Of a stretch of 64,000 nucleotides of DNA, positions 3,709 to 45,625 are shown piece by piece. The notes beneath the pieces were generated by a model. The model searched no databases. It worked only from the letters and a program-made list of their open reading frames with translations, and had not been told where the DNA came from. Numbering within the stretch: the first letter of the stretch is position 1; each line of letters starts with the position of its first letter. Made by a program: the position numbers and the translations under genes. Source of the stretch: Candidatus Heimdallarchaeum aukensis. GTDB lineage: Archaea > Asgardarchaeota > Heimdallarchaeia > Heimdallarchaeales > Heimdallarchaeaceae. The stretch spans positions 1,440,001 to 1,504,000 of the forward strand of contig CP084166.1 in NCBI GenBank assembly GCA_021513695.1, written 5' to 3'.

Positions 3709-3775
3709 TGTGACAAGTATTTGTAAATGGATAAAAAACCTTTTTCTAAAAAATTTAAAATGATTTTTTGAGAAT

Positions 3776-4171
3776 TTAAACAACAAGCAAGTTTAGCGGA
3801 TTTAGCATTCCAATAATCTTATCTCCATCCTTAACTATCAAGTGGTTTATTCTCTTTTCTTTCATTTTAACGAGAGCGACTGAAATTGTTTCTCTTGCTG
3901 AGATAGAGATTAATGGGCTAGTCATAATTTCTTTAATTTTTGTTTTATTGAAGTCTAGTTCCTTATAAAGAGCTTTTACGATATCTTTAGTTGTAATAAT
4001 ACCGACTGGCTCGTTATCATTTGTTACAAGTATGGAACCAATATCGAAATCTGCTATTATTTTAACAGCTTCATTTAGATTCTTTTCTCCTTCAATGAAT
4101 AATACACCTTTTGTCATAACACTTGTTACAGGTTCTTCATAAATAGGTTCTCGCAGAGTCATTATCCTCAA
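3776..4171 (-). CDS. CBS-domain pair protein
   Basis: 131 aa. Two CBS-like repeats ('VMTKGVLFIEGEKNLNEAVKII...GSILVTNDNEPVGIITTKDIV' and '...RINHLIVKDGDKIIGML'). Confidence 0.65.
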   Translation of the reverse strand: MRIMTLREPIYEEPVTSVMTKGVLFIEGEKNLNEAVKIIADFDIGSILVTNDNEPVGIITTKDIVKALYKELDFNKTKIKEIMTSPLISISARETISVALVKMKEKRINHLIVKDGDKIIGMLNPLNLLVV

Positions 4172-4305
4172 AATAAGCTTTTATTTGCTTTTATTAATGT
4201 TTTTGAAAAAAGATAATTACAAAAAAAAGAAAAATTTGATACGAAAAACTAATATGTAGATTCAATATAATAATAGAATCGAGAGAACTAGGAGTAGGAA
4301 AAAAG

Positions 4306-4752
4306 TTGTATGCGGATAGTCAAGAGATATTTCATTTAGCGACGCAATTACAAAGAATAAATTACTTGGGGCATGTACAAACTTTCCAAATTGAATTCGA
4401 CTATTTAGAAGAAGAGATGAAAAAGAAACTTCTGGATGTATTTAATGATTCTACGGGTATTGGTCAATTCAAGTCAGATATGATAATAATAGAACAAGTA
4501 GGGGAAAGAGATTTTCTTAAGACTGTTGAGACATTTCAATATATTGCTAAGGTTATGGGGGATCTGTCAGCAATAGATAGTATAACTGCTTTAGTAGAAA
4601 TAAATTACAAAAATGATGTTCATTTTATCGTTGTTTCCTTTGTACCACCTGATTCATTGGAATTAATAAGTACAAGTGAAAGTAAACTATATTTTGAACT
4701 ATTAAACTATGTAAGAACAAAATGGGCATTTTCAAAGACATTTATTCGATAA
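4306..4752 (+). CDS. Hypothetical protein (148 aa)
   Basis: Open frame with a TTG start in the ORF track and no recognisable motif. Possibly a roadblock-like alpha/beta fold, but unsupported. Confidence 0.35.
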   Translation: MYADSQEIFHLATQLQRINYLGHVQTFQIEFDYLEEEMKKKLLDVFNDSTGIGQFKSDMIIIEQVGERDFLKTVETFQYIAKVMGDLSAIDSITALVEINYKNDVHFIVVSFVPPDSLELISTSESKLYFELLNYVRTKWAFSKTFIR

Positions 4753-4770
4753 TAATTTCTACTAGTTTTA

Positions 4771-5856
4771 CTAGGCAAATGGTCTTTCTCTTAATAGGGC
4801 ACGAAGTAATTCCAAATTTGTTTGTATTTTAGGTGAATTGATGGGTAAATTTTCATTTTTTATGGAATCAATTATATCATATAATATATATGTTGCAATA
4901 TGGAAATCTATTGTATAACCATCTGGATACATCGATTGGAGGTCTTGTTCTACTCCAATTTCAGTTAGAGTTTTATCATATTCGTATATAAATTTCATAA
5001 CTTTATTTTTTGTTGAAGTAAAAGATTTAGTACTTTTATATTCGGTTATAACATCAAGAGCAAAATAAGCACCAATATCCTCGCATCTATCTCTATTAGC
5101 TTCTATAAATTCTGAATTAAAAACATAAACTTTCACTTTTTCGCAATCTTGTTCAGTTAAACTGGAACGGTCTGAAGATGAATCAATAACCATTTTTAAG
5201 TTAGACTTATGAAAATCACCATGAATAACAGCAGAACCCTTGGATTTTTGTAAAATAGCTAAGGAGGGAACAAGGAGATCAATCAATTCTTGTTCTAGAT
5301 CCTCGTTGTTCAATAAAGAGATCAAAAATAGAATGACCGTTTTATAAGGTTCAACATCAATTTCTTTTGCTCCTATCCCATGAATTAAGGCCAAGGTTTT
5401 TGCTGCGAGTTTTAATGAATCATCTTCTGAAATGTTGCTTTTTACGTCAATCCCTAAACCTGCTTCATAGATAATACACTTGTTTTTTGCACTTTTATAG
5501 ATAATAGGAGGAACTAAAACACAAGGATAGTTTTTCAATGAGGAAGCTAAAATTTCATAATTGCTAATTTCTTTGATATAAGCCTCTTCGTCCTTACTGA
5601 ACTTTACTATTAAATAAACGACATGTTTACCCAATTCAGATTCTAAATTATATGTTACAAAGTGTGTTTTTGAACGAGAGGAACGAAAATCCTGGGAAGT
5701 AACATCAACAATGGATATTTGATGGGGAGTAGCGTTTGTTTCTTTTTCAACAGATTGCTTAAAGTATTCTTTTAAACTCTCTCCAATTATAGTAAGTATT
5801 CTTTTCAGTTTTTCAAAATCTTTTTTATTGTTTGGAGAGTTATTTGCTTTTTGCAT
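4771..5856 (-). CDS. Kinase-like phosphotransferase (APH/choline-kinase fold) family protein
   Basis: Catalytic-loop-like 'VIHGDFHKSNL' (HGD motif), followed by a 'FNSEFIEA' D-x-E-like segment and an upstream beta-strand Lys region 'VYLIVKFSKDEE'. Confidence 0.45.
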   Translation of the reverse strand: MQKANNSPNNKKDFEKLKRILTIIGESLKEYFKQSVEKETNATPHQISIVDVTSQDFRSSRSKTHFVTYNLESELGKHVVYLIVKFSKDEEAYIKEISNYEILASSLKNYPCVLVPPIIYKSAKNKCIIYEAGLGIDVKSNISEDDSLKLAAKTLALIHGIGAKEIDVEPYKTVILFLISLLNNEDLEQELIDLLVPSLAILQKSKGSAVIHGDFHKSNLKMVIDSSSDRSSLTEQDCEKVKVYVFNSEFIEANRDRCEDIGAYFALDVITEYKSTKSFTSTKNKVMKFIYEYDKTLTEIGVEQDLQSMYPDGYTIDFHIATYILYDIIDSIKNENLPINSPKIQTNLELLRALLRERPFA

Positions 5857-5913
5857 TTAATTCAACTTATAGATATAATTCAAACTTATAAAAGCTTTAT
5901 GTGTTTACTATGG

Positions 5914-6300
5914 GGTAGTGTCTAGTTTTTATACCACCTCCTAGGCAAAAAGGAATTAAGGGGTGGGTGTCCAAGGCTCTGGTGGGGGCGAATGAAGTTA
6001 TAATAAAGCATAAAGAGAGTAAGAAAACCAGAGAGATGATCGGAGCCATAAATAGCTCGAATAGAACAGGTACAGTGGAGAACAGAGTGAAACCAACGAT
6101 AGGTCTTAAGACTGGCATTAAAGCGCTCAACATATGACCGTATACCACCACTAACAACAAGATGATTAAGCCCGAGACGAGATAGATAGGATAGAATAGC
6201 AGGAACCAGCATCAGTGACGACGATACGTGGTTTTGAGGCCCAACAGCGGAACCAATAACGAAAAGTTAGTAAGCACTCGAGGACACTACTACCTTTACT
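5914..6300 (-). mobile_element. Truncated copy (left ~385 bp) of the IS6-family element found intact at 54324..55089
   Basis: Begins with the same terminal inverted repeat GGTAGTGTCTAGTTTTT (5914-5930). It is ~75% identical over ~380 bp to 54324-54712. It encodes the transposase C-terminus ('...ERFNASLKTY...YNFIRPHQSL...PRRWYKN*') on the minus strand. There is no right inverted repeat and no target-site duplication, so this is a solo or partial copy. Confidence 0.7.
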
Positions 6301-8873
6301 GTTTACTCTAATGGAACATATGTTATTTCAGTCTCTGATCTTACTGATTTTGGTAAATATCAGTTAGTAGTATTATTAACCTTAGATGGTTACGTTGATC
6401 AAAGCTTCACTCTGAACATTTTACTTTTAGAGAGAGAAACAACATTGAGTTCAACTACAGGAACTAGCCTACAGATTTACACAATTGATACCTTGAATCT
6501 ATTTTTAGAATACAAAGACAAAAATACTGATACAGCAATAGAAGCAGATGATAATCAAATTTCTTTTGCTCAAGGAACAGGAAATGAAACTTTAACCCTC
6601 AGTTTTTACTTTGAATCAATAAGTTACAATGGTTACACAGTCACTCTTCATTCTTTCACTTTTGACCCTAATGAAGCTACTGCAGCAGGATATGTATTTG
6701 TTTTCAACATTACACTTTCAAAATTTGGATATTCTAACAATTCAATTATAATCTATTTAAGAGTTGATATCAATCCTTCTGATATTCAGTGCCTAGAAGA
6801 TAGTATACTTATTGATTCTTCACAACAAGCATCTTTTACAATTTTCTATATTGATACAGTTTCTAATACAAACATTACTGGTGCGTTCATTAGCGTGTTA
6901 CAGTTAAATGGTTCTTCTTCTGATATCGATTCACTTTTAGCTTATAGTTCTACACCCTTTTACATTGTCTATATTGATCCTGATAATGTAAATGCTGTAG
7001 ATAAGACCTTTATGTTTAATGTTACACTCTATAAGGCGGGATATGAGAATCAATCTTACATTATTTACCTAACCGTAGTGTATAATCCCACCACAATTAG
7101 TGCAGAAGAAACAGAAAGTACCATTTTTGCGGATCAAGTCGCAGAATTTACACTGTATTATATAAATGATAAAACAGATACATATATAGAAGATGCTTCA
7201 GTAACCATTGAAATTGTCAATGGTTCAATGTATATAGAAGAATATTATGCTACAGGAACAAGTCCCTATATGTTTATATTAACCCTTATGATTAAAATTC
7301 CTCAGATTTAACTTTTGAAATAAGAATCACAATATCAAAAGGAGGATATAAAGAACAATCTATAGTACTTTATTTGCATGTAAAGATTCATCCTACAAGG
7401 ATATTCTCCTCTAGTAGCACTCAAACAATTTATGCAGATGAAACAGCAGATTTCACTGTTTATTACTGGGATACTTACAATGTTTTAATTGAAGAAGCAA
7501 ACCATACAGTAGAACTTACTCTTGGTGATTCAATAGATGTTGAAGGAGTAAGTTTGTTACATAACCAAGTTCTAGATGCTTACATTATCTCTTTTGATTT
7601 TAATGACTTTACAGTAACAAATGAAACATTTATTTTTAACATTACAATGTGGAAACCAGGATTCGAAAATCAATCAATAATACTAACGGTAAAAATCCAT
7701 GATTTCATTAGATATGAATTAAGCATAAACATCGATAGCGATACTATTCAACTTCTAAGTACAGTAACATTTACATTAATTCTAAAAGAAGCTATTATAC
7801 AGTTACTTGCTGATGATAATACAAAATTAGCTTATTCTCCTATTGGAGAAAATGTAACTTTAACTTTATTCCTTCTCGATAATGCTAATAATATCATTGA
7901 AACATCTACATTTAATATTACAATAAGTGATATTCAAAATGGTAATTATATTGGTCAATTCAAATATAGAGTTGAAAATTGGAAAGCTAAAAGCCTTAAA
8001 ATAGAGTGCACATATCTTCCTAAACAATCAAATATTGTTTCAACAACGAACTTCGATCTAACTTTTGAAATAAAGTTTCCATATTTCAATGATCTTTTCT
8101 ATGAATATCTATCTTACATGATTGCAGCAATTTCAATAATTGCCGTAGCAGCAATAACCTTGGCTGTTTATTTTGGAGTAGTTCGTCCCAAAAAACAAAG
8201 GCAACAAGCAAAAAGAAAACAATATTGTGATACTGTGTCAAATATACTTCAAAGCGTCACATCCATAAAGAAAGTTCTTGTTGTTCATAAAGATACTAGC
8301 TCTCCTGTTTATGAATTAGACTTAGGTTCAGATATGAGAGTAAGTTCAGCGCTTGTGACTGGATTTTTGCAAGCTGTATCCACAATGGCAAAAGAGATTA
8401 CAGGAAAAGATAAAGATGTTGTCAAAAAGTTAGATTACGGAGATTTAATTGTTACTTCTGCAGGCACAAAGAACTATATTACTTACATTTTCTCAGATAG
8501 AGAACTTTCAGAAGATATAACAAATGGTCTAAAAGAGTTCGTAAAATACTTTGAGAAAAGATTTTCTCATGTTGCAGAAAACTGGATTGGTTCCTTAGAT
8601 GAATTTAAAAAAGCAGAAAAGGCAATTTTGCGTAATTTAACAGAGCACTTATATATTTGGACATTATATCCTATAACTACTAATCCAACAATGGAAAAAG
8701 AAGTAAAGAAACTAGGTCCAATGAGCCAAAAAATAATTAAATTCGTTAAAGATACAAAAGAAGTAACAATAGGAATAATACTTCAATATTTCAACAGGTG
8801 GCCAAAAGAAGAAACTATTTCACTTGTCTTTGCTTTAGTTGAAGATCATTACCTTCTTACAAAGAGAATATAA
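6274..8873 (+). pseudogene. Disrupted large repeat-containing surface (S-layer/adhesin-like) protein with a C-terminal TM helix and a cytoplasmic roadblock/longin-like plus wHTH-like domain
   Basis: One gene in two frames (6274..7311 and 7296..8873). There are ~90-aa internal repeats, each ending with '...F(V/M/I)FN(I/V)TL.K.G(Y/F).N(Q/N)S.I(I/L)(Y/T)L.V', recurring at least five times with N-glycosylation-like N-x-S/T sites. The frameshift lies near 7285-7320 and is verified codon by codon. The N-terminus is missing: the frame opens right at the edge of the IS remnant at 6274, with no start codon or signal peptide. A TM segment 'IAAISIIAVAAITLAVYFGVVRPKKQRQ' is followed by a ~240-aa cytoplasmic domain. 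Confidence 0.6.
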
Positions 8874-8939
8874 CACTTTTTCTTTTTGTCTTTAATGTTA
8901 ACTTTATTAATTAACCTAATTCTCTTTTTTTAGATTATA

Positions 8940-9659
8940 ATGAAAAAATGGGAAGGATATGCGATCCTTTGCGATATGGATGGTGTCATTATAAGTATAA
9001 AAGAGAGATGGATAAACCCCTTTGAAAAAGCATTAAGAAAGGTTAAAGAAGATATAGATGAACATGCTCTGAGAGAACAAGCTCCATCTTTACTTCTAAC
9101 ACATGGAGGAAGAAGTAAAAAAATATGGTTAAGAGCAATTTTCAAGGTTTGTGGTTATGCGGGTTTGTCTAAATTTCAATCTTTTAGAGTGCTAATAAAT
9201 GTTGGTTTAATGCTTTTAAAACCTAAAAACTTTAAAATTGTTCCTTTTGATGGAGTTGAGGAAACTTTAGAAAAACTAAAAGGTTTAGGATTTAAACTTG
9301 CTTTAGTTACAACGGCTTCGAATTTTACCATAAGGAGGTTAAAAAAACTATATCCTGAAATTCATTCTAAGTATGACTTTATTTTCACGAGAAATGATGT
9401 AAAATTTACTAAACCCTTTCCAGACCAATTAAATTTAGCAATTGAGAAATTAAATGTTGATAGAGATAAGTGTGTTATGATTGGGGATTTGATGACTGAT
9501 ATTCTAGCTGGTAAAAATGCAGGAGTTAAAACTGTAGCTATCCTTAGTGAATACCCATTTATTACTGAAGCTCTTTTATCATCAGTAGAACCAGATCATA
9601 TGATAGAATCATTTTCTTTACTTCCAGAGTACCTAGATGACATTTTTACAAATAAATAG
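8940..9659 (+). CDS. HAD-superfamily (subfamily IA) hydrolase/phosphatase
   Basis: Motif I 'ILCDMDGVII' (DxDG), motif II 'LVTTAS', motif IV 'GDLMTDILAGKNAG'. An insertion between motifs I and II forms the cap. Confidence 0.7.
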   Translation: MKKWEGYAILCDMDGVIISIKERWINPFEKALRKVKEDIDEHALREQAPSLLLTHGGRSKKIWLRAIFKVCGYAGLSKFQSFRVLINVGLMLLKPKNFKIVPFDGVEETLEKLKGLGFKLALVTTASNFTIRRLKKLYPEIHSKYDFIFTRNDVKFTKPFPDQLNLAIEKLNVDRDKCVMIGDLMTDILAGKNAGVKTVAILSEYPFITEALLSSVEPDHMIESFSLLPEYLDDIFTNK

Positions 9660-9754
9660 CTAAATAGCTAAAATTTCTAATGCACTAATATATTTTTCCT
9701 AGTCTATCATAAGAAAAAGTTCAAAAACGCTATTAAAAACGCTAACATGTAAGA

Positions 9755-10231
9755 ATGAAAAGGCAGTTTAGATTTCCGGAAGCTCTCCTCTATCAATCGA
9801 CCTATGTTTGGATAAAAGATATAGGAAGAGGTGTTTACGCAATAGGGATTACAGATTATGCACAATATTTGTTAGATGACATTGTCACAATTTCATTACC
9901 TGTTGATGACTATGTAGAACAAGGTGATGAACTAATTTCCATTGAATCTATTTACGAAACAATTGAAATTGAAAGTCCGTTCACAGGTAAGATTGTAGAA
10001 ATAAATGACGATGTAAAAGATAATCCTGAGCTCTTAAATGAAGACGCCTTTGGTTCATGGATCTTAAAAATTGAAATTAGCGATGAAGAAGAATTAGATG
10101 ATTTATATACAGCTGATGAAGTTTTTGATCTATTTCAAGAAGAACTGGAAGAACAAGGGGATGAAGAATTAACAAAAGAATTTGGTGCCTTTGTACAATT
10201 TAACGACGACAATGAAGATGGATGGGTCTAA
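9755..10231 (+). CDS. Glycine-cleavage H-protein-like protein lacking the lipoyl-lysine, with an acidic C-terminal extension
   Basis: Aligns to GcvH throughout ('YAIGITDYAQYLLDDIV', 'ISIESIYETIEIESPFTGKIVEIN', 'PELLNEDAFGSWILKIEI'). The position of the lipoylated Lys (ESVKAAS in E. coli) is Tyr here (ESIYETI). About 45 extra C-terminal residues are rich in D/E. Confidence 0.65.
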   Translation: MKRQFRFPEALLYQSTYVWIKDIGRGVYAIGITDYAQYLLDDIVTISLPVDDYVEQGDELISIESIYETIEIESPFTGKIVEINDDVKDNPELLNEDAFGSWILKIEISDEEELDDLYTADEVFDLFQEELEEQGDEELTKEFGAFVQFNDDNEDGWV

Positions 10232-13604: not shown

Positions 13605-14534
13605 TCATTTCTCTTCTTTCTTTTTGTTTTCATTTTTTATAATTAACAAAATACGTTCCCATATAGAGTCTAGCAATGAGTGAATAACTCTTTGTTGATC
13701 TTGTGTTTCAATAATAGAGATTCGATGTCTATTTGCTTCTTCAACTAGATATCTCTGAATAGTTCGTATTTCCTCAAAAGCATTAATATATCGTTCTGCG
13801 TTTCTTTCTACAACTTTTAACCCCCTCCTCTTGAAACGTTCAAGATGCTCATGCTCATCTTTTAAGTGGAGAAGAAAAAGCATTACATGAGGTTGGGTTA
13901 TTGTTTCTGTTTTAAACAAGTTAGGAGATAAATGGACACCTTCAATAATTGTATTTTCTCTAGAATACATAGCCGATTCAATGATAGCCTCAACACCCAC
14001 AATGACTAATCTACTTTGTTCTTCAAACCCAACAATACTTCTATCTAAAATTGGGTTTATTTCAGGTTTTAAGTACTTATAAGCTTCATATGAGCTCCCA
14101 TATAACTCTGGGACTAGTTTTTTTGAAATACTTTGCCTTAATATCTCTCTTACCATATCAGTTCCAATAATATTTGTTATTTCTAGCCTTCGGGAGAGCA
14201 ATGAGGCAATTGTGCTTTTTCCTATTCCAGGCACTCCAGCTAATAAGATAATAATTGGTTTATATACTCCCTTTTGCTCAAAAGCAATGTATCTCTTAGC
14301 ATATAAAGGATTAAATTTTTCGAGATTATCAATAATTATCTGAGAAAAAGCTTCTTGAGAGAGTGTTTTGTCTGTTTTTCCTACTTGTAATTCGATTTGG
14401 GTTGCTAGTTCATAAGCATTAATTTCATCTAAGCCTATAGCATAAAAAGTACGAGAAAGAATACCCTTAGAAAAAATAGTTTTTCTTCCTGATTTTGTCC
14501 TAAATTTAATAAAGTTAGATGAAGGTTTACTCAT
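13605..14534 (-). CDS. 2-phosphoglycerate kinase family P-loop kinase (paralog 1)
   Basis: 'ILLAGVPGIGKSTIASLL...IIGTDMVREILR' matches the P-loop and downstream motif of archaeal 2-PGK (Methanothermus fervidus type). Confidence 0.7.
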   Translation of the reverse strand: MSKPSSNFIKFRTKSGRKTIFSKGILSRTFYAIGLDEINAYELATQIELQVGKTDKTLSQEAFSQIIIDNLEKFNPLYAKRYIAFEQKGVYKPIIILLAGVPGIGKSTIASLLSRRLEITNIIGTDMVREILRQSISKKLVPELYGSSYEAYKYLKPEINPILDRSIVGFEEQSRLVIVGVEAIIESAMYSRENTIIEGVHLSPNLFKTETITQPHVMLFLLHLKDEHEHLERFKRRGLKVVERNAERYINAFEEIRTIQRYLVEEANRHRISIIETQDQQRVIHSLLDSIWERILLIIKNENKKKEEK

Positions 14535-14677: not shown

Positions 14678-15568
14678 ATGAACTTTGAATCCCCAATATA
14701 CGTGAAGAGAGAGCAAGCAAGTTATTTATTTAGCAGAGGGATTCTGGCTACAAGACTAGAGGTTATAGGTCTTGAGTTTCAACAAGCTTATGAATTATCT
14801 AACAAGATATATCTAAAAATCAAAAAATTATCTGAAAATACAATATCCAAGAATAAATTAGATGAATTTGTTTATGATTCAATTAAAGAAAAATATTCTG
14901 AAAAACTAGCTGAAGAATACTTAACAATCGAAAAATTAAGAGATACAAATATACCTTTGTGGATTGTTATTGCAGGAGCTATTGGAGTGGGAAAAAGTAC
15001 ATTATCAAGGAAAATCGCTTCAGACTTTGGGATTAGGCATGTAATTGGAACAGACATAGTAAGAGATATTTTAAGAAAAACACTATCTAAAGATATTGCT
15101 CCACAGCTGCATTCTCCTTCATATTTAGCTTATAAAACATTAAGACCAATTTATAGTACACGTTACGATGAAGTGATTATTGGTTATGAAAATCATTCAA
15201 AATATGTTAATATTGGAATCGAAGCTCTGTTAAATAGAGCTGCAATGGAAAACATTTCAATAATTATTGAAGGAGAACATTTACTGCCTTCTTTTTTTGA
15301 CAAAGAAACAATAAAAATTTCAAATTTAATCTACATCACTATCTCTTTAGAAAATGAAAAGATGCATTTAGAAAATTTAAGTTCACAGTATTCTAGAGAA
15401 AAAGAAGAGCTAATTAAAAACTTTAAAAATATTCGGAAAATTCATGATTTCCTTGTCCACGAAACAAAAATCAGAAAGTTACCTGTTATCGAAGCTAAAG
15501 ATAAAGATGTGGTACTTGCAAATGTGAGAAAATATATTATTGAAAAAGCTAAAAAGATAGTTTTCTGA
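14678..15568 (+). CDS. 2-phosphoglycerate kinase family P-loop kinase (paralog 2)
   Basis: 'IVIAGAIGVGKSTLSRKIA...VIGTDIVRDILR' parallels paralog 1 along the whole length. Divergently transcribed from it. Confidence 0.7.
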   Translation: MNFESPIYVKREQASYLFSRGILATRLEVIGLEFQQAYELSNKIYLKIKKLSENTISKNKLDEFVYDSIKEKYSEKLAEEYLTIEKLRDTNIPLWIVIAGAIGVGKSTLSRKIASDFGIRHVIGTDIVRDILRKTLSKDIAPQLHSPSYLAYKTLRPIYSTRYDEVIIGYENHSKYVNIGIEALLNRAAMENISIIIEGEHLLPSFFDKETIKISNLIYITISLENEKMHLENLSSQYSREKEELIKNFKNIRKIHDFLVHETKIRKLPVIEAKDKDVVLANVRKYIIEKAKKIVF

Positions 15569-20579: not shown

Positions 20580-22931
20580 TTGGTTTTAATTAAAAGATTG
20601 ATTTTTTTCAAAAATCGTAAAAATGTTTATTATCTTTCATACGTAAATAAATTGGATAATATGGTAATACAAGAAGAGAGTAAGGACATCATAGAAGACT
20701 CACCTTTTAACCGCCTTGTTCTTGCAGAAATGGAGAGAGAACGACTTTACTCTACATTTGCTTTAGTTGACGAATTTAATGAAATTGCGTCTTCATGGTT
20801 AGAATTTTCAGATTTTTGTGCAAAATCATTATTTAATTTAACAAATTTATCATTTCTTCTCTATGAGCGGTATCTTGATGAATTTAATAGAGATAAGCAA
20901 CAAATAGAGATAAATTTTGAACGTAAAAGCTTCATTATTAAGAGAATAGAAAATCTGCAACAATTCCAAATGGAAGCAGCTATTTTAATGATTCTCTATG
21001 CAGATATTGTTAACACAGGCATTTTTGAGTCTAAACCTGCAGAAAATTTTTGTTATTTAAACATTGAAGGATATAAGGTTCTTGAGAAAATCTCTTCTAC
21101 ATATTTCGATTCTACTCATCCCAGGGCCTCATCAATTGAAGATATTATGGTAAAGTTATTTACAATAAGTCAAAAAGTCCAAATTGTGAAGATACTAAAT
21201 GATTCGCCAATTAAAAAAGCAAAAGAACCATCTTTTATTCAAGAACAACTTGAGTTGGAAAGATTATTAGCAAGTTTTGAGTTTGATTTTATTGCTAAGT
21301 TAATAGAAGAACTCGGAAAAAGATGGTGGTGGTATGACCCAATTGCAATACATTTTAGCTATGAAAGAGCAATGAAACACTTAGAAAAATCTCTTTCCCT
21401 TTTAGAACATAGTGAGGAAAATGTTCTACAAATTAAAGAAGAAATTAAAAATAAGATCTCAACAATAGATAAAATTTGGAGAAATAAAGCACTAATTGAT
21501 CACTTTTATAGAATCACATTAGAAGCAGCTAAAAAAGACAACTTTGTTGCAAGCATCGAATACCTAAACTTAATTTTAGGATTAATCGATGAAATCATTG
21601 AATATTTTCAAAACAATAATGAACATTTAGAAAGCGAAGAACAATTTTATGAAGAAATAGAAGAACGTAAAAACGATTTAAAAGTTTTTCATATTGTTGT
21701 CAGACTAGCTCTTTCTGTAGCTGAAATCATAAACAAACAAACCTCAATAGATAAAGCATTGTTAGAAAAAAAACTTACAGAAATAGAAAAAATATGCAAA
21801 GATTCTTCATTGTTTTCCAATATAAATTACTTCTCTGAAATTATTTATGTTTATCAAGGCTTTGTTCAAACAGCTAGAATTGGTATACTGAAGAAACAAA
21901 AAACAGAGAAAATCTTGAATAATGCAATAGCACAATTTGAATACTATATAGTCAAACTTGAGAATAGTTTAACAAAAATTGCTAATGATTTTTATAAGAA
22001 AGTCCATAAAGGGACGCTAAAAAGTACTGATTTTAAAAATTACTTAAAAAAGATTGAAGAGTTAAAGTACATCAGTTTCTTTTTACCTAACTTAGAACAA
22101 AAACTCAATCTTACACGAGAAATAGAGTCAATGGAATGTTATATTAAATCAATAGCTGCATTAAAACAGTCACAATCCCAAGAGTTGTCTGAAATTGAAA
22201 AACTCATCTATTATTCGAAAGCACACTATTTCTCAAATAAAGCTTTAGATTTGTCTCAAAGTAAGGAAAAAGCCATAATTCCTGACAATTGGCTTGAAGA
22301 GCAGTTCCTTAAAACTTTCACTGAAGGGAGAGAAGTCGAGTTAAAACTTTTTGAATTATCACGTCAATTTCTTTTTCTAAATAAAGTAATAGATGAAATT
22401 GCTTATTGCTTTGACATTTCAGAAAAAAAGAAAGAAAAAATTGAAAATTATGAGACAGTTCTTCAATTTCACTTTAGAAAATTTGAACTCTTTGAAATCA
22501 TTAACAAACAGATAGAAGAAAATTGTTTAGAATCCCTGAAATACAGAGAAATATCAAATGATATTGTAATTGTAGATAAAAACGTCAATTGGCAAATTAT
22601 TGAAGCTAAAAAAATATTGGCATCTTCAGCAGACAAATTAATCAAAGCACTTAAAAAATGCGCCCTTGGTTATGCAGCAGATAGAAGTAAAGACAACTAT
22701 AAAGCAGCTGTTTTATTTAATGAAGGTTATAAGCTGGTTCAGGAAGCATGTAATATTTTAGACCCACTAACTACATATGACAAACAATTTGCTGATTTGG
22801 CAAAAACAACTTACGAATTCAATTTGTTTCTAAAGGAACTTGAACGTTTGGAACTTGAGAAGAAAAAAATAAAAGAATTTCCTCTAGAAAAAGTGTTGTC
22901 TCTAGTTAAGAAAATAATTTTCTTTTCGTAA
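20580..22931 (+). CDS. Large (~755-783 aa) predicted all-alpha hypothetical protein
   Basis: Long uninterrupted ORF with an E/K-rich helical composition and no recognisable catalytic motif. The likely start is the ATG at 20661 ('MVIQEESKD'). Confidence 0.55.
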   Translation: MVLIKRLIFFKNRKNVYYLSYVNKLDNMVIQEESKDIIEDSPFNRLVLAEMERERLYSTFALVDEFNEIASSWLEFSDFCAKSLFNLTNLSFLLYERYLDEFNRDKQQIEINFERKSFIIKRIENLQQFQMEAAILMILYADIVNTGIFESKPAENFCYLNIEGYKVLEKISSTYFDSTHPRASSIEDIMVKLFTISQKVQIVKILNDSPIKKAKEPSFIQEQLELERLLASFEFDFIAKLIEELGKRWWWYDPIAIHFSYERAMKHLEKSLSLLEHSEENVLQIKEEIKNKISTIDKIWRNKALIDHFYRITLEAAKKDNFVASIEYLNLILGLIDEIIEYFQNNNEHLESEEQFYEEIEERKNDLKVFHIVVRLALSVAEIINKQTSIDKALLEKKLTEIEKICKDSSLFSNINYFSEIIYVYQGFVQTARIGILKKQKTEKILNNAIAQFEYYIVKLENSLTKIANDFYKKVHKGTLKSTDFKNYLKKIEELKYISFFLPNLEQKLNLTREIESMECYIKSIAALKQSQSQELSEIEKLIYYSKAHYFSNKALDLSQSKEKAIIPDNWLEEQFLKTFTEGREVELKLFELSRQFLFLNKVIDEIAYCFDISEKKKEKIENYETVLQFHFRKFELFEIINKQIEENCLESLKYREISNDIVIVDKNVNWQIIEAKKILASSADKLIKALKKCALGYAADRSKDNYKAAVLFNEGYKLVQEACNILDPLTTYDKQFADLAKTTYEFNLFLKELERLELEKKKIKEFPLEKVLSLVKKIIFFS

Positions 22932-23824: not shown

Positions 23825-23837
23825 ATTAGTGAGAAAT

Positions 23838-24182
23838 ATGACTCAAGTTCAAACAGAAACAAGATGCGCAAATTGTGATAGGGTAATTAAGCTAACTCCA
23901 GAAATTTTAGAATCAGGTTGTCCAGATTGTGGTTCGTTTAAATTTATAACCAAAAGGATTTTAACAGATTTGGAGAAACAACAAAAAGAAGTAAAGGTCT
24001 TGATAGATAAAGAAATGAGAGAAGAAGATATTACAAAAGATATATCTTCTATAAGACTGAGTACTGAAGGGACATTTGAAATTGATTTAGAGAAACTGCT
24101 CGAAGAAGTAACTGAAAACAAGCCTATAATAACAAGAAATAAGGACGGAACCTATCATGTCAAGTTCCCTGAAAAAAAATAA
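23838..24182 (+). CDS. Small zinc-ribbon protein (about 115 aa)
   Basis: 'CANCDRVIKLTPEILESGCPDCGSF' has the same C..C....L...GCP.CG pattern as the C-terminus of the upstream gene. Followed by a charged helical tail. Confidence 0.45.
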   Translation: MTQVQTETRCANCDRVIKLTPEILESGCPDCGSFKFITKRILTDLEKQQKEVKVLIDKEMREEDITKDISSIRLSTEGTFEIDLEKLLEEVTENKPIITRNKDGTYHVKFPEKK

Positions 24183-24266: not shown

Positions 24267-24932
24267 ATGGTCGCTAAAGATCAACTTGATAAGGAAGATA
24301 GAATAAAAAAGGGAGTAGAAGAGATTCTAAGCTTCAGAGGATATGAAATTAAAAAAATAAATACAGATGATGATTATATTGATTTTTACGCTGAAAAAAC
24401 TGATGAAGACGGAGAAGAAACAAATTTAATTGTCAGATTTCCTAGAAAAGCGAGCATAGGAGTAAAAACAATAAGAGAACTTGATCAATATAGAAAAGAT
24501 GAAGATATTCAAGATGCAATAATTATAGCAGAAGGAGCTTTAACTCACTATGCAAAAAGAGAATGTTTAGAACGAGGAGTGGAAATAATAAGTGGAACAA
24601 ATCCCCTTTTTAATATCTTTGATCACATAATGGTTCCACTTCATATAAAACTTGAAGATGATGAAGTTGAAGAAGTTTTAAAGAAATATCAAATAAAGAA
24701 GCATCAATTGCCAAAGATCCTAGACTCAGACCCTGCGATTAAAGCTATTCAAGCAAACCCAGGAGATATAATAAAGATAATTAGAAACCCAAACATGGGA
24801 GAAGCAGGAGTATATTATCGATATGTTATCAGATCTACATCAAGATTAAGGCTAGCAGCAAAAACTCAACGCTCCTCTTTAGAAGAAGAAGTTGTAGAAG
24901 ACATAGAAGAAGATATAGAAGAAGAACTTTAG
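24267..24932 (+). CDS. rpoH: DNA-directed RNA polymerase subunit H (Rpb5 homolog), full-length eukaryote-like form with N-terminal Rpb5 'jaw' domain
   Basis: C-terminal 'LKKYQIKKHQLPKILDSDPAIKAIQANPGDIIKIIRNPNMGEAGVYYRYVI' is canonical RpoH/Rpb5-C. The N-terminal ~130 aa align with the eukaryotic Rpb5 N-domain (memory comparison with human RPB5). Acidic tail 'EEEVVEDIEEDIEEEL'. Confidence 0.8.
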   Translation: MVAKDQLDKEDRIKKGVEEILSFRGYEIKKINTDDDYIDFYAEKTDEDGEETNLIVRFPRKASIGVKTIRELDQYRKDEDIQDAIIIAEGALTHYAKRECLERGVEIISGTNPLFNIFDHIMVPLHIKLEDDEVEEVLKKYQIKKHQLPKILDSDPAIKAIQANPGDIIKIIRNPNMGEAGVYYRYVIRSTSRLRLAAKTQRSSLEEEVVEDIEEDIEEEL

Positions 24933-24972
24933 AAAAACTTTAGAAAAACTTTAGAAAAACTTTCTTTCTTAA
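24925..24972. repeat. Short tandem repeat (TAGAAAAACT x3, then a degenerate copy) at the 3' end of rpoH
   Basis: Seen directly as agaaaaacttTAGAAAAACTTTAGAAAAACTTTAGAAAAACTTTCtttc. The stop codon lies within the first repeat. Confidence 0.6.
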
Positions 24973-25042
24973 AAAAAGTAAAAGAAGAAATGTGATTTGT
25001 TTTTCTGAAAGATTTATTACATCCTTCTTTTCTTTTCATTTA

Positions 25043-25984
25043 ATGAAAGAAAAAGGTAAAATTGTTTTTTTAGGTGGTGGTACAGGAACACCTAAACTTA
25101 TACAAGGGATTAGGAGAATTATTAATGAAGAGAATATCACTGTAATTACCAATACAGCAGATGATATAACTCTTTATGGTTTATATATATCTCCAGATGT
25201 AGATACATATCTTTACCTTTTTTCAAATTTACTTGACACTAAAAAATTCTGGGGTATAGAAGGAGATTCTTATTATACTTATTCATTTCTAAAGAAATTC
25301 GACAAAAATGCTTGGTTCACTTTGGGAGATAAAGATTTAGCTATCCATCTCTTTAGAACACAAAAACTTCAAGAAGGGAAGAACCTTTCAGAAATAACAA
25401 CTATCTTAGCCAATCGTTTAAATATAAAAGCAAAAATTTTACCATGTACAGATAATCATATAGAAACAAGAATTGTTACAAAAAATGGCCATGACATTCA
25501 TTTTCAAGAGTTTTGGGTACGCGAAAAAGCAAACTTATCTATTAAAGAAATATATGTTAAGGGAATAGAAAACGCGATTATTCCTGATGATATTTTTAGC
25601 GAAATTGAGGAAGCAGATAAAATTATTTTAGGTCCTAGCAATCCAATAACAAGTATCGGTCCGATAATTTCGATAAAAAAAATTAGACAGTCATTAAAGA
25701 AAAATAAAGAGAAATGCATAGCTATTAGTCCTATTGTTGGAGATAGGGCAATAAGTGGACCTACATGTCAATTTCTTGCAACTAAAAACAAAAATTGCTC
25801 AATAAAAGATATAATTTCCCTTTATGAAGATTTTATTACATGCTTTTTTATTGATGAGTCTGATAAGAACATAGAAGAACAAATTAAAAATATCTATCCA
25901 AATTTAGATATTCGAAATGAAAATATAGTAATGAAAGATATTAGTATCTCACAGAATTTAGCAAAAACATTGCTTAAGGTGTAA
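25043..25984 (+). CDS. cofD: 2-phospho-L-lactate transferase CofD-like (CofD/UPF0052 family)
   Basis: 'KIVFLGGGTGTPKLIQGIRRII...ITVITNTADD' matches the TGTPKL motif of CofD. Start taken at the ATG at 25043 ('MKEKGKIVFLGGG'). Confidence 0.7.
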   Translation: MKEKGKIVFLGGGTGTPKLIQGIRRIINEENITVITNTADDITLYGLYISPDVDTYLYLFSNLLDTKKFWGIEGDSYYTYSFLKKFDKNAWFTLGDKDLAIHLFRTQKLQEGKNLSEITTILANRLNIKAKILPCTDNHIETRIVTKNGHDIHFQEFWVREKANLSIKEIYVKGIENAIIPDDIFSEIEEADKIILGPSNPITSIGPIISIKKIRQSLKKNKEKCIAISPIVGDRAISGPTCQFLATKNKNCSIKDIISLYEDFITCFFIDESDKNIEEQIKNIYPNLDIRNENIVMKDISISQNLAKTLLKV

Positions 25985-25986
25985 AA

Positions 25987-26775
25987 ATGGAAATCTCTCC
26001 ACCTATTATTCAATCTGCATTAGCGGGATATACAACACCATCATTCATTCAATCAATATTAGATAATGGTGCGGGTATGGCTACATTTGGAGGTTATTCT
26101 TTAGATAAATTAACAAATGAGGGATCAACTGAAATAATTAAGAGAAATAGAAAAGAGATTTTACTCCCACGAGATGAAACTGAATTTCAAAAGTGGTGCA
26201 ATCTAAATTTAAATGTAAAAAAAAGTTCAGATAAACAATTAATTGCAATTAATTTACGAATATCTAAAATAGACCAAGAAACTTTAAGAAAAATAAATTT
26301 TTTATCAAACTTTATTGATATTATAGAATTAAATGCTCATTGTAGACAGAAAGAAATTGTAGAAAGGAGAGGAGGAGAGTATTTACTCAAAGATATTAAT
26401 CATTTAGACTACATACTAGAAAAAATCAGAAAAACTTCTCCAAATGATAAAAAGATCGGGATAAAAATCAGAGGTTACATTGTAAAAGACCAACAAAAAC
26501 TAGTGAATGTTCTTGAATCAAGATCTGTTGACTATTTACATATTGACTGCATGGAACCTGGAAAACCCTATGCAAACTTAAAAATACTAAAATCTTTTTC
26601 TGAATTAACAGATATCACTTTAATTGGAAATAACTCTGTTAGAAATGTAAAAGATGTTCAACAAATGATTGATGCAGGAGCTTCTGCTGTTTCAATCGCA
26701 AGACCTTTAATTACTAACCCTAGTTCTATCAAAAGGTTAATATCAGAATGCAAAAACAAAGGAATTCTAAAATGA
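25987..26775 (+). CDS. Dus-like (tRNA-dihydrouridine-synthase-like) FMN-dependent TIM-barrel protein
   Basis: 'ALAGYTTPSFIQ' (cf. Dus 'lAPMagvTd..fR'), 'IIELNAHCRQKEIVERRGGEYLL' (cf. 'IDlNmGCP..kv.k.g.G.aLl', Cys retained), 'IGIKIRGY', 'DYLHIDCM' and 'GASAVSIARPLITNP'. Start lies 3 bp after the cofD stop, and the stop overlaps the cofC start (ATGA). Confidence 0.45.
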   Translation: MEISPPIIQSALAGYTTPSFIQSILDNGAGMATFGGYSLDKLTNEGSTEIIKRNRKEILLPRDETEFQKWCNLNLNVKKSSDKQLIAINLRISKIDQETLRKINFLSNFIDIIELNAHCRQKEIVERRGGEYLLKDINHLDYILEKIRKTSPNDKKIGIKIRGYIVKDQQKLVNVLESRSVDYLHIDCMEPGKPYANLKILKSFSELTDITLIGNNSVRNVKDVQQMIDAGASAVSIARPLITNPSSIKRLISECKNKGILK

Positions 26776-27377
26776 CCAAGACAGCATTCCTCATTCCATA
26801 TAAAGGAACAAATAAAGCAAAAACCAGATTAAGAAGAAAACTTAATGGAGAAGTTGTAGATAAACTCCTTTTTCGTCTCTTCGGAGCGGTAATTCAAGAA
26901 CTATCAGAAATGAAAATAGAAAAGTCTATATACATCTTAACAAAAAACTCTAATCTTCTTCTTAATGAGAATTGTATAAAAATAGTTGACAAAAAAGATG
27001 ACTTTAATGAAGCTATTGTTGAAGCTGTTAAAGATCTAAGTGAAGAAAATATCATAATCATCATGGCTGATCTTTACAAAATTAAAAAAAAAGAGATTAG
27101 ACGAATTATTAAATTAAGAAAAAAGTATTCTGTGGTTATTGCACCCTCAGAAAATGATGGAACTAGCATTTTTGCATTTTCTAAAAAATTACTTTCTGAA
27201 ATAGAATTCTGTTTTGGAAATAATTCTTCATTAATATTTGAAAAACAATTTAAGCAAAAAGGAATAAATTATTTTAAATTACGCTATAAGAATGTTTTTA
27301 AGGATATAGATAACCTTGAAGATATTCTTAGTATAAAAAAATTAGCAAAAGAATTAAACTTATTCAACAAAAATTAG
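26772..27377 (+). CDS. cofC: CofC-like guanylyltransferase (MobA-like nucleotidyltransferase fold)
   Basis: 'TAFLIPYKGTNKAKTRLRRKL' matches CofC 'aiIPvK.f..AKTRL'. ATG at 26772-26774, overlapping the stop of the Dus-like gene. Confidence 0.6.
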   Translation: MTKTAFLIPYKGTNKAKTRLRRKLNGEVVDKLLFRLFGAVIQELSEMKIEKSIYILTKNSNLLLNENCIKIVDKKDDFNEAIVEAVKDLSEENIIIIMADLYKIKKKEIRRIIKLRKKYSVVIAPSENDGTSIFAFSKKLLSEIEFCFGNNSSLIFEKQFKQKGINYFKLRYKNVFKDIDNLEDILSIKKLAKELNLFNKN

Positions 27378-27386
27378 GGATAAAAG

Positions 27387-28532
27387 ATGAAAGAAAAAAT
27401 AGAAAGAGTACAACAGGTTCTAAAAAAACATGAAGTAAATAGTTGGATTGTATTCTGTCACCATGGTTACGACATTCACAGTAAATATTTACTAGAAAAA
27501 AACATTACATCAGCCACTTTTATCATGATTAAGCAGGAAAATAAACCCATTGTTATCACCTCTCGAATGGAAGCTATGATGATCAATAATGATGTATATG
27601 ATGTTATAGCCTATAAAACTCGTAACGAATTAATAGAATTATTAAAAAATTCTTTATCTGGTCTCGAAGATGGGAAAAAGATAGCTATAAATTATGTACC
27701 AAAAGATAATTTACTAGATAATTTTTCTATGGATATTCTTCCTGCAGGAACATATGAATTCTTAACTTCGATGAATAATAATATAAATTGGGTTTCAGCT
27801 AAAGATATCATTAGAGATGTCCGCAGTGTCAAAACAAAAAAAGAAATTGAAAATCATAAAATTGCAGCTAAACTAGCTGAAGAGTTAATGGAAGAAGCTG
27901 TAGAGCAGAAAATTAAACCTGGAATGACTGAAAAAGAAATTAAAGCACTCATTGAATACGAATGTAATAAGCGAGGAGGAATAGCCTTTGAAGCAATTGT
28001 AGCTTCTGGTGCAAATTCTGCTATACCTCACCACCATGCTTCTAAAACTAAAATCAAAGAAAATCAAGTTTTATTAATAGATTATGGGGTTTCCTATAAT
28101 TGGTCAAACAGCGATATAACAAGAACTTATTGGATAGGGAGTAATCCTCCTGAAGAAGTCTTAAGAGCTTATGAGGCAGTTGATGCAGCGAAAGAGGCTG
28201 CTTATAAACATATTAAGGCAGGAGTTTTCGCTTCAGAAGTTGAAAATGCGGTAAGAGAAACAATGAAAGAATTTGGCTTCGATCCTGAAAAATATTTTAT
28301 CCATTCTACTGGCCATCCTTTAGGTATAGAAACACACGATATAGGTGTAGGAATATACAAAGCTTCAGAATCAGTAGCTGATAAACCTCTAATAGAAAAT
28401 TCTGTAGTAACCGTTGAACCTGGCCTATATTTCGAAGGAAAATTTGGGATCAGACTAGAAGATGATTGTGTGGTTACAAAAGACGGTAGCATAAGATTAT
28501 CAAATACTCCAAAAGAGATTATTACCCTTTAA
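27387..28532 (+). CDS. M24-family Xaa-Pro aminopeptidase/prolidase
   Basis: 'LLIDYGVSYNW' (metal Asp), 'HSTGHPLGIETHD' (HxxGHxxGlexHe) and C-terminal 'VEPGLYFEGKFGIRLED'. Confidence 0.8.
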   Translation: MKEKIERVQQVLKKHEVNSWIVFCHHGYDIHSKYLLEKNITSATFIMIKQENKPIVITSRMEAMMINNDVYDVIAYKTRNELIELLKNSLSGLEDGKKIAINYVPKDNLLDNFSMDILPAGTYEFLTSMNNNINWVSAKDIIRDVRSVKTKKEIENHKIAAKLAEELMEEAVEQKIKPGMTEKEIKALIEYECNKRGGIAFEAIVASGANSAIPHHHASKTKIKENQVLLIDYGVSYNWSNSDITRTYWIGSNPPEEVLRAYEAVDAAKEAAYKHIKAGVFASEVENAVRETMKEFGFDPEKYFIHSTGHPLGIETHDIGVGIYKASESVADKPLIENSVVTVEPGLYFEGKFGIRLEDDCVVTKDGSIRLSNTPKEIITL

Positions 28533-28635: not shown

Positions 28636-29250
28636 TTGTCTTGGAAAACTTGGTTAAAAAGTAAACCCAAACATATTAAACTTGGATTTTATGGGGAAGT
28701 AAATGCCGGGAAGACAACGTTAGCAAATGTTATGGGGATGGATTGGGCAGGACAAGAAGTGGGAAAAGTTTCTGAAATCCCTCACGAAACTAGAGAAATT
28801 GCAAAACTAGAAAAAGTTGATTTTAATGTGGATGGGACAAAAATAGATTTAACTTTAATAGATATGCCAGGTATAGCTACAACAGTTGACCCAAAATCAT
28901 TTGTTAATTATGGATTAAGTGCTGGAGAAGCTATGCAAAGAGCTAAAGAAGCAACAAGAGGAATAGTAGAAGCTATCAAGTATTTAGAGCAAGTTGATGT
29001 TGCACTTGTAGTATTAGATTCTACAAAAACACCATTTGATCAAGTTAATTTTACTATTCTTGGGAACTTAGAACATCAGAAGAAGCCATTTATTATTGTC
29101 CCAAACAAAATAGATTGCCCTGAATCAGATGTAAAAACAGTGCAAGAAGCCTTTGGTGATTATGAAGTTGTACCTATCTCTGCCTTGAAGAAGGAAGGTA
29201 TTGACAAACTCTATGATAGTATTGCAAAATTAGCTAAAAAGGTGAAATAA
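28636..29250 (+). CDS. Small standalone GTPase (Era/EngB-like MMR_HSR1-type G domain)
   Basis: G1 'GEVNAGKTTL', G3 'DMPG', G4 'NKID'. Not Ras-like (no DTAGQE). TTG start per the ORF track. Confidence 0.6.
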   Translation: MSWKTWLKSKPKHIKLGFYGEVNAGKTTLANVMGMDWAGQEVGKVSEIPHETREIAKLEKVDFNVDGTKIDLTLIDMPGIATTVDPKSFVNYGLSAGEAMQRAKEATRGIVEAIKYLEQVDVALVVLDSTKTPFDQVNFTILGNLEHQKKPFIIVPNKIDCPESDVKTVQEAFGDYEVVPISALKKEGIDKLYDSIAKLAKKVK

Positions 29251-29251
29251 A

Positions 29252-29605
29252 ATGTCTTACAGTGTTGATTTTATTCCAGAAGATGAAACGGGTAGGTTTT
29301 CATTAGTTGAAAAAACCAGATATATTCTCTCTCAAGTCATGCGAAATAAAATTCTTATTTTAGAAAATGCACTCACTCCAGAAGAAGAATTATACTTAAT
29401 CGAGAAAACTATGAATAAGATAGATTATAGTAACTTCGTTGGAATCAAGCTTTTCTCATTTGATTCAGGAGAAGAAAACAGATTCTCAAAAATATTCGGC
29501 AAGTCATCTAAAAAACGGTCTACTTACACTATTGTGGCTCCAAATGATGCAGTTTCTGTTGTAAAAGATGAAAGAGGGATTTTATCAATTAGAATTAATG
29601 TTTAG
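29252..29605 (+). CDS. Hypothetical 117-aa protein translationally coupled to the upstream GTPase
   Basis: Starts 1 bp after the GTPase stop. No motif recognised. Confidence 0.45.
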   Translation: MSYSVDFIPEDETGRFSLVEKTRYILSQVMRNKILILENALTPEEELYLIEKTMNKIDYSNFVGIKLFSFDSGEENRFSKIFGKSSKKRSTYTIVAPNDAVSVVKDERGILSIRINV

Positions 29606-45067: not shown

Positions 45068-45625
45068 ATGACTGACAATAACCAAATAACAACAGAAAAA
45101 AAACAGTTTGTTCCTCGTGAAGGATCTATAGAGTATAAAATGCTTTTTGGAACACCAAAAGAACAGAAAAAAATGACTGCAAAGTTTAAATTTGCCAACA
45201 AGTTTTTTACTATTCCTCTATACAAAATTGGGATATTACCACTGTTTGGTGCAGGACAAATTTTTCTTTTACTATACACTAAAGGTCGGAAAACAGGTAA
45301 GATCAGAACTACTCCTCTTGAATATCGAAAAATGGATGGAAAAATGTATATTTTTGCTAGTAGGGGAAACAAGACAAACTGGTTAAGAAATCTAAAAACT
45401 AATCCGGATGATGTGCGAGTAAAGATTGGATTCAAAAAATTTGCTGTAGAGCCAAGAATTCTATCTGTTGAAGAAAGAGCAAAAGTGTTTTATCAATATG
45501 TAAAGAATTACCCAACTGCTTCAAAGGCCTTAATGGGATGGAATCCGAAGGAAGATAAGCTGGAAGAAACAGATTTTTCGTTTATTGCGGAACACATTCC
45601 AGTTGTACAGTTAATTAAAAAATAG
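45068..45625 (+). CDS. Deazaflavin(F420)-dependent nitroreductase (DDN/PF04075) family protein
   Basis: 'LLLYTKGRKTGKIRTTPLEYRKMDGKMYIFASRGNKTNWLRNLKTNPDDVRVKIG' matches DDN 'llltTtGRkSGkpRttPl.y...g..yvvaS.gG....WyrNL.anP.v.v'. Confidence 0.6.
   Translation: MTDNNQITTEKKQFVPREGSIEYKMLFGTPKEQKKMTAKFKFANKFFTIPLYKIGILPLFGAGQIFLLLYTKGRKTGKIRTTPLEYRKMDGKMYIFASRGNKTNWLRNLKTNPDDVRVKIGFKKFAVEPRILSVEERAKVFYQYVKNYPTASKALMGWNPKEDKLEETDFSFIAEHIPVVQLIKK

Follow-up and report, generated by a model that had tools for sequence, protein, structure and literature searches.

In this study we describe a compact operon for the side chain of the cofactor F420 in Candidatus Heimdallarchaeum aukensis (assembly GCA_021513695.1, contig CP084166.1, positions 1,440,001 to 1,504,000 of the forward strand; this whole stretch of 64,000 nucleotides is referred to as the window). 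Between cofD and cofC lies a gene for a 262-residue protein that we call X, and the three together document a complete F420 tail-synthesis operon in the Heimdallarchaeia, the group most discussed for the origin of eukaryotes. We propose that X is probably a reductase of a carbon-carbon double bond (C=C) in the lactyl branch of F420 synthesis, counting together a reaction ahead of CofD and one on dehydro-F420-0. The form of this proposal that we favor, with a probability of slightly below 0.4, is that X is a flavin mononucleotide (FMN)-dependent ene-reductase that would furnish the saturated (S)-lactyl-phosphate linker before CofD acts, preferably by converting phosphoenolpyruvate (PEP) to 2-phospho-L-lactate (2-PL). 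We arrive at a linker reductase because X is coupled to the linker-building genes, because its fold class carries out such reductions and because the archaeal pathway lacks either a reduction step or a source of 2-PL.

F420 has a central place in methanogenesis, in the making of antibiotics and in the activation of anti-tuberculosis prodrugs, and it is wanted for biocatalysis. The gap in the archaeal pathway is either the source of 2-PL (“CofB”) or the reductase of dehydro-F420-0 (“CofX”), and the literature is split between the two (PMC6450877; PMC8764529; PMC7253369). Mycobacteria use PEP, and their dehydro-F420-0 is reduced by the nitroreductase (NTR)-fold domain of FbiB; archaeal CofE has no NTR domain, so a separate archaeal reductase, CofX, was predicted, the search for it being confined to the surroundings of cofE and to NTR folds, and Lokiarchaeales were reported to carry an FbiB-like fusion (Bashiri 2019; PMC6450877). 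An earlier reading of the present DNA from its letters and translations (the sequence-only reading) had likewise described the archaeal reductase as having no firm assignment, in agreement with the CofX of that paper. The CofC of M. jannaschii turns over 96.5% 2-PL versus 3.5% PEP, no dehydro-F420 (DF420) was detected in M. jannaschii extracts, and E. coli carrying the M. jannaschii (Mj) cofC and cofD yields mere traces of DF420 (Braga 2019 preprint; 10.1101/670455). Mjan-CofD prefers LPPG (Hasan et al., 2022; PMC8764529), and PEP and EPPG are minor substrates of Mj CofC and CofD (10.1101/670455; PMC8764529). M. thermoautotrophicum contains micromolar 2-PL, with the way in which it is made still to be determined (Grinter et al., 2020; PMC7253369), and the lactate kinase CofB is still given as unidentified in a 2021 review (PMC8498797). 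The literature that we searched contained no functional assignment for MJ0144, CofX or CofB. The position of X between cofD and cofC, together with its C=C-reduction fold, narrows the dispute to a single-gene test.

The cofD-X-cofC operon and protein X

25043–25984, + strand: cofD, archaeal-type 2-phospho-L-lactate (LPPG):FO transferase (TIGR01819, PF01933)
25987–26775, + strand: X, MJ0144-family Dus-like FMN-type TIM-barrel protein (262 aa), candidate enolpyruvyl (C=C) reductase
26772–27377, + strand: cofC, CofC-family guanylyltransferase for the GTP-dependent activation of 2-PL or PEP (PF01983)

The sequence-only reading had described three tightly spaced genes in one orientation, and the order, the strand and the ATGA overlap between X and cofC all stand. 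The cofD open reading frame (ORF) opens with a GTG at 24992, has its likely start at the ATG at 25043 and stops with TAA at 25982–25984; that of X runs from the ATG at 25987 to the TGA at 26773–26775 on the + strand, and that of cofC from the ATG at 26772 to 27377, with an alternative ATG upstream at 26748. Read directly, the cofD/X junction is “gtg TAA aa ATG”, a spacer of 2 nt and not the 3 given before, and the X/cofC junction is “aaa ATGA cc”, in which the TGA of X overlaps the ATG of cofC (26772–26774). The G+C content is about 30% across the whole window. All of the peptide motifs quoted in support of the earlier assignments (GGGTGTPKL, ELNAHC...GGEYLL and IPYKGTNKAKTRL) are found in the translations.

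The identification of the flanking proteins as CofD and a CofC-family protein is borne out by profile scores. CofD reaches 315.8 bits on the equivalog TIGR01819 (cut-off 257.45) and 174.5 bits on PF01933, and its nearest solved structure is the LPPG:FO transferase CofD of M. mazei (3c3d, 233 bits), clearly ahead of mycobacterial FbiA (6uvx, 135 bits). YvcK, which the sequence-only reading had named as the alternative identity of this gene, fails as an explanation (59.7 bits on TIGR01826, cut-off 196), and by these scores the upstream gene is a true F420-branch CofD. CofC matches PF01983 with 70.5 bits (gathering score 22) and the equivalog TIGR03552 with 94 bits, under its cut-off of 105.

X itself had been read as a Dus-like FMN-type TIM barrel with its active-site Cys kept, and family scans and structure prediction agree on a barrel of the dihydrouridine synthase (Dus)/dihydroorotate dehydrogenase (DHODH) fold. 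The match to PF01207 (Dus) is 35.8 bits (gathering score 20.4) and is confined to residues 110–257. The best NCBIfam match, and the best match over the full length, is TIGR00736, the “MJ0144 family RNA dihydrouridine synthase-like protein” (also “nifR3-related archaeal TIM-barrel protein”), on which X scores 167.1 bits against a cut-off of 218.7, with residues 13–243 aligned to profile positions 2–225 of 231; the Methanobacterium orthologue scores 265.7 bits and passes. X has the same invariants and falls in the same length class as the other MJ0144 members, from which the Asgard proteins differ in never being fused to methanogenesis marker 9 (mm9) and in being bracketed by cofD and cofC. On the DusB model TIGR00737 X scores 26.1 bits (cut-off 293), the DusB and DusC equivalogs both giving about 26 bits against cut-offs near 300, and no nitroreductase-family match was found in the family scans. 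An exhaustive HMMER search of 1.84 billion cluster representatives returned 35 at E <= 1e-30, mostly with full-length alignments, whereas ordinary Dus proteins (at least 300 aa) came in at E ~1e-12 to 1e-15 and aligned with the second half of the profile only. A 100% identical protein in the public collections is named as coming from Candidatus Heimdallarchaeum aukensis, and the NCBI name of X is “tRNA-dihydrouridine synthase”. The X family is a known but functionally orphan one, widely misannotated as tRNA-dihydrouridine synthase.

No solved structure exists for the X family, the best sequence match in the PDB being human Dus2 (E 5.5e-7). The AlphaFold2 model of X, built from a 52-sequence alignment (pLDDT 96.8, pTM 0.93), is a lone (beta/alpha)8 barrel that ends at residue 262. 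Among the known systems nearest to X are the tRNA dihydrouridine synthases, such as E. coli DusB (6ei9), T. maritima TM0096 (1vhn), T. thermophilus Dus (3b0v) and human Dus2 (4wfs), and we compared its conserved columns with those of 26 Dus representatives. The latter extend 65–93 residues (median 79) past the end of X, with a median of 0 in the X family, whose members measure ~232–278 aa where the mm9 fusion is absent; by the model and by this comparison alike, X lacks the C-terminal helical, tRNA-binding domain. The 52 X-family members, drawn from Asgard archaea, methanogens and Archaeoglobi, share 21 invariant columns. N116, C119, K160, R162, N215 and R239 are held in common with Dus; N116, C119, K160 and R162 are invariant or nearly so in the X family and sit on the corresponding Dus columns, and C119 aligns with the catalytic Cys in the “NMGCP” of human Dus2. 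The residues R55, E57, R91, H118, R120, Q121, E123, H185 and D187 are invariant and specific to X. The Dus motif NxGCP has become NAHCRQ, with its G and P swapped for H118 and R120, and HxR has become HxD, the H and R columns of Dus (each 100% conserved) aligning with D187 and M189.

In a neighbor-joining tree the X family forms a clade apart from Dus, found in archaea only and encoded in cofactor-biosynthesis operons; the grouping with genuine tRNA-modifying enzymes that the sequence-only reading had named as counting against its proposal is therefore not seen. X therefore has the catalytic machinery of a flavin C=C oxidoreductase of the Dus/DHODH type; yet, with the C-terminal helical domain missing, the NxGCP and HxR motifs altered and the clade separate, it is no Dus by architecture or by clade. 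Its fold and conserved residues predict that it binds FMN.

Gene neighborhoods of X across archaea

Relatives of X occur in at least 556 species, and we analyzed the surroundings of the best 80 loci (one genome per species) by tblastn and ORF clustering. In a homologue search the best 120 of 2015 matches were all from Heimdall archaea or Methanobacteria. The sequence-only reading had suggested a survey for such genes between cofC and cofD elsewhere, and X does stand with both in many other archaea: cofD is found within 2.2 kb upstream of X on the same strand in 55 of the 80 species-level loci. Among loci labelled as Asgard or TACK this holds for 25 of 26, mostly in the order cofD-X-cofC and at times with cofE ahead. 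Of the 16 Heimdall-labelled loci, 15 have cofD directly upstream, the other being truncated, and 15 have cofC directly downstream. The ten other Asgard/TACK-labelled loci (Borr, Sif, Jord, Frey, Hod, “Promethearchaeota”, an uncultured archaeon and one Thermoproteota-labelled metagenome-assembled genome (MAG)) all have cofD upstream, and cofC follows directly in six and within 2.8 kb in eight. Four loci (Jord, Frey, the uncultured archaeon and the Thermoproteota-labelled MAG) carry cofE-cofD-X-cofC with genes that overlap or abut, and the cofE ahead of cofD in these four is single-domain (246–300 aa). A Kariarchaeaceae contig reads rpoH-cofD-X-cofC.

The arrangement recurs in methanogens. Of the 39 Methanobacteriales-like loci, 30 (of 34 with sufficient flank) have cofD no more than 2.2 kb upstream, in the order cofE-cofD-arfA-X, with arfA between cofD and X in 35 of the 39 and cofE upstream in 22. 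In Methanobacterium ferruginis, as read from family scans, the cluster is purO-cofE-cofD-GTP cyclohydrolase IIa-X-methyl-coenzyme M reductase (MCR) component A2-mm9-sirC. Chance would be expected to place a single-copy gene on the same strand and within 2.2 kb in well under 1% of genomes, and the 55 of 80 species observed belong to deeply separated lineages; the cofD-X arrangement is far beyond chance. Because synteny with cofD and cofC recurs in Asgard and Methanobacteriales-like loci alike, a link between X and F420 side-chain synthesis is well supported. Adjacency in methanogens is less specific than the overlapping cofD-X-cofC arrangement, since a methanogen cluster often brings together genes for different cofactors. 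Searches by tblastn for cofE, arfA, mm9, atwA, CitG and DUF447 found none of them in the window and, in Asgard loci, only the cofE of the four Asgard/TACK-labelled loci above. Fusions of X to CofC, CofD or CofE were sought among the long family members, which yielded only mm9 fusions and one 349-aa member with an extra tail.

The partner that does recur as a fusion, mm9 (TIGR03277), is a 109-residue Cys-rich domain with two CCxPxKPCP-like Cys motifs. It is fused to X in proteins of ~371–376 aa in Methanocellales, Methanoperedens and some Archaeoglobi, and is a separate gene 0.2–2.8 kb downstream of X in 27 Methanobacteriales-like loci (e.g., L019:12462–12938); the MCR component A2 gene intervenes in 26 Methanobacteriales loci, and in Methanosphaera mm9 follows X directly with no A2 between. 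mm9 matches no solved structure, and our literature search found no paper on its function. We read mm9 most simply as an electron-input module for the flavin of X in methanogens.

Two further arrangements were seen. Methanocaldococcus has the order ferredoxin-GCH_III-X; in Methanocaldococcus lauensis (L081:4847–6780) GCH_III (arfA) and X have ahead of them, on their own strand, a gene for a 70-aa 2x[4Fe-4S] ferredoxin, and this ferredoxin is a possible electron donor to X in a lineage without an adjacent mm9. In Methanoperedens (L049, L051, L071, L074 and L075; ~2900–9830, - strand) X::mm9 is divergent from a Nuo/Fpo-like operon ~120 bp away, which possibly encodes an F420H2 dehydrogenase, its subunits being named by eye only; in L075 cofD lies ~3 kb downstream of X::mm9 on the opposite strand.

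The reaction proposed for X and its alternatives

In the mechanism that we favor, the reduced FMN of X would pass a hydride to the enolpyruvyl C3 of PEP, and Cys119, acting as a general acid of the Dus/DHODH type, would protonate C2 to give 2-PL. CofC would then guanylylate 2-PL to LPPG, and CofD would move LPPG onto FO to form F420-0, so that X would take the place of the never-found lactate kinase CofB; as a minor variant, X might act on CofC-bound EPPG. In methanogens the Cys-rich mm9 domain, fused to X or encoded nearby, would supply electrons to the flavin. Near the X of Asgard archaea no mm9 was found, and there the flavin may be reduced directly by NAD(P)H, as in Dus enzymes. The substrate and electron donor of X and the role of mm9 are what we infer from sequence. 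We favor PEP as the substrate because archaeal CofC and CofD prefer 2-PL and LPPG, because 2-PL occurs in methanogens that have X and DF420 was not seen in M. jannaschii, and because the CofD of the window is an archaeal LPPG-type enzyme that resembles the CofD of M. mazei more than it does FbiA. The X-specific invariants are mostly charged (R55, E57, R91, H118, R120, E123 and D187), which would, as a weak indication, suit a small trianion such as PEP.

Several observations weigh against this mechanism. The case for it is made from gene context, fold and conserved residues, and X scores under the TIGR00736 cut-off. The loci compared are the best 80 from at least 556 species, and F420 is also made by haloarchaea and ammonia-oxidising archaea. 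No cofD was found near X in Methanocellales, nor in eight of nine Methanoperedens loci, and the dapF-X-gyrA context of Geoglobus-like genomes is uninformative. X::mm9 is directly followed by CitG-like and DUF447 genes in seven Methanocellales or Methanocella-like loci (L039, L053, L063, L070, L079, L087 (6001–8552) and L088) and in one Archaeoglobi MAG (L085, 5001–9608). We take the CitG-like gene (“orf5”) and DUF447 (“orf7”) to belong to the methanopterin-linked gene islands of methylotrophs. We know of no enzyme that reduces PEP to 2-PL, and our literature search found none. Finally, in so far as it is cited in 10.1101/670455, the work of Graupner and White traced isotope label from lactate into 2-PL, which points to a kinase route.

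The same synteny and fold would serve as well if X were CofX itself, with CofC and CofD using PEP and X then reducing the enolpyruvyl C=C of dehydro-F420-0 to F420-0. X would in that case resemble FbiB's C-terminal domain in reducing an enolpyruvyl C=C to the lactyl linker, in using FMN (as predicted for X) and in having its gene beside that of CofD/FbiA. The two are not homologous, X being a TIM barrel and the FbiB domain an NTR fold, so that a common function would be by analogy only; the FbiB domain is moreover fused to a glutamyl ligase, while X occurs alone or joined to mm9 and may act on PEP rather than on dehydro-F420-0. Of the other flavoenzymes that might be compared, MurB (UDP-N-acetylenolpyruvoylglucosamine reductase) has a different fold from X and uses FAD, and to our knowledge neither MurB nor class 1 DHODH nor the old yellow enzyme (OYE) ene-reductases act on PEP or F420 precursors. 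A role as CofX would accord with the separate archaeal reductase predicted in PMC6450877, where only NTR-fold proteins near cofE were considered, with the single-domain CofE that adjoins X in archaea, and with the minor use of PEP and EPPG by the Mj enzymes. We nonetheless regard it as rather unlikely, though still a serious rival: archaeal CofC and CofD prefer 2-PL and LPPG, M. jannaschii shows no DF420 and methanogens contain 2-PL (10.1101/670455; PMC7253369; PMC8764529), and, as a weak inference, a 262-aa barrel with no extra domain and few aromatic invariants seems poorly suited to a large deazaflavin. Dehydro-F420-0 is thus not the substrate that best fits published archaeal enzymology, and reduction ahead of CofC is at least as likely.

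Other assignments would take X out of the lactyl branch. The CitG-like and DUF447 neighbors of X::mm9, to which the Archaeoglobi MAG adds a pterin-binding DUF4346 protein and an ATP-grasp gene, raise the thought that X and mm9 belong to tetrahydromethanopterin (H4MPT) biosynthesis, for instance in reducing a ribofuranosyl-aminobenzene intermediate to its ribityl form, or to chemistry common to both cofactors, given that F420 and H4MPT each bear an (S)-2-hydroxyacid in phosphodiester linkage; mm9 is, furthermore, a methanogen marker. This we judge improbable. H4MPT-branch enzymes are reported to be progressively lost in Heimdallarchaeaceae and Kariarchaeaceae (PMC12222021), which still keep X coupled to cofD and cofC and so argue for a role beyond methanopterin. 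Near X, neither CitG nor DUF447 turned up in the Asgard or Methanobacteriales loci, nor in the window, and methanogen clusters mix cofactor genes, as where A2 and sirC share the Methanobacterium cluster with X. In Methanocaldococcus and in 35 of the 39 Methanobacteriales-like loci the gene directly upstream of X is arfA (GTP cyclohydrolase IIa/III), which could instead suggest another flavin or deazaflavin step, in the pyrimidine/FO branch or in the redox handling of FO or F420, but the Asgard operons have no arfA beside X, which is bracketed there by cofD and cofC. The known gaps in archaeal riboflavin and FO synthesis (a deaminase and a phosphatase), besides, involve no redox chemistry, and ArfC is already known as the ribosyl reductase, so we give such a step a low probability.

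Lower still is the chance that X is an RNA dihydrouridine synthase in an incidental operon position. The PF01207 score above the gathering score, the best structural matches, which are Dus enzymes, the retained catalytic Cys, Asn, Lys and Arg and the NCBI name all speak for it; the missing C-terminal domain, the altered motifs, the equivalog scores far under their cut-offs and the separate clade speak against it, and it would leave the tight, deeply conserved coupling to cofD and cofC without explanation. We find it hardest to credit that X and mm9 serve the maturation or activation of MCR, as the component A2 gene between them and the status of mm9 as a methanogenesis marker might suggest, because X is widespread in Asgard lineages whose X loci hold F420 genes only and no MCR context; mm9, moreover, resembles no solved structure, and Methanosphaera does without the intervening A2.

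A fuller version of the PEP-reducing role, in which X would have a previously unreported PEP reductase activity that fills the CofB gap, mm9 would be its Fe-S or metal electron module and X would be the missing part for heterologous F420, we put forward as a tentative and rather doubtful whole. If true, it would give functions to two orphan families (MJ0144/TIGR00736 and mm9), correct the common annotation “tRNA-dihydrouridine synthase”, add a new function for a Dus-like flavoenzyme and close with a PEP reductase a gap that has been open since 2001. X could then be the part needed if archaeal genes are to yield authentic F420 in E. coli or yeast.

Other genes of the window

45068–45625, + strand: Ddn/FDOR-A-type deazaflavin-dependent oxidoreductase homologue, outside the operon (PF04075, TIGR00026)

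The sequence-only reading had cited this DDN-family gene as support for F420 usage, and its family holds, with scores above both thresholds (PF04075, 64.7 bits, gathering score 22; TIGR00026, 73 bits, cut-off 46.35); it is consistent with the use of F420 by the organism.

The operon is flanked by genes that are themselves conserved. At 24267–24932 (+) in the window lies a homologue of RNA polymerase subunit H/Rpb5, whose place directly upstream of cofD is kept in many Heimdall, Borr and Kari loci; its N-terminal Mrr_cat/Rpb5_N-like domain gives it a eukaryote-style two-domain architecture. Just past the stop of this gene, ~80 nt before the cofD start, there are four tandem copies of an 11-bp unit (AGAAAAACTTT; 24920–24963). 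Ca. H. endolithica has no such repeat in the orthologous spacer, which makes it unlikely to be a conserved regulatory element, and we dropped it as a part of the system. Downstream, a gene for an M24 (PepQ/creatinase-like) peptidase (27387–28532, +) begins 9 nt past the end of cofC; in 14 Heimdall and Borr loci it likewise comes after cofC, with which it may be co-transcribed, though it has no known link to F420.

Homologues of the origin-associated proteins OapC and OapB, together with a small GTPase directly upstream of OapB, flank rpoH-cofD-X-cofC-pepQ (23829–24182, 28636–29250 and 29252–29605, all +); the small GTPase and OapB genes come after pepQ in 11 Heimdall loci each, and a replication origin may lie nearby. 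A 783-aa ORF at 20580–22931 (+) has no Pfam match and is kept upstream in eight Heimdall loci. Some 10 kb from the cofD operon, a divergently transcribed pair of paralogues (13605–14534, -; 14678–15568, +) has an ATP-cone-like region at the N terminus joined to a P-loop kinase domain and resembles 2-phosphoglycerate kinase by eye, Pfam giving only generic AAA/kinase and ATP-cone matches; as small-molecule kinases they may be of interest in view of the missing lactate kinase CofB.

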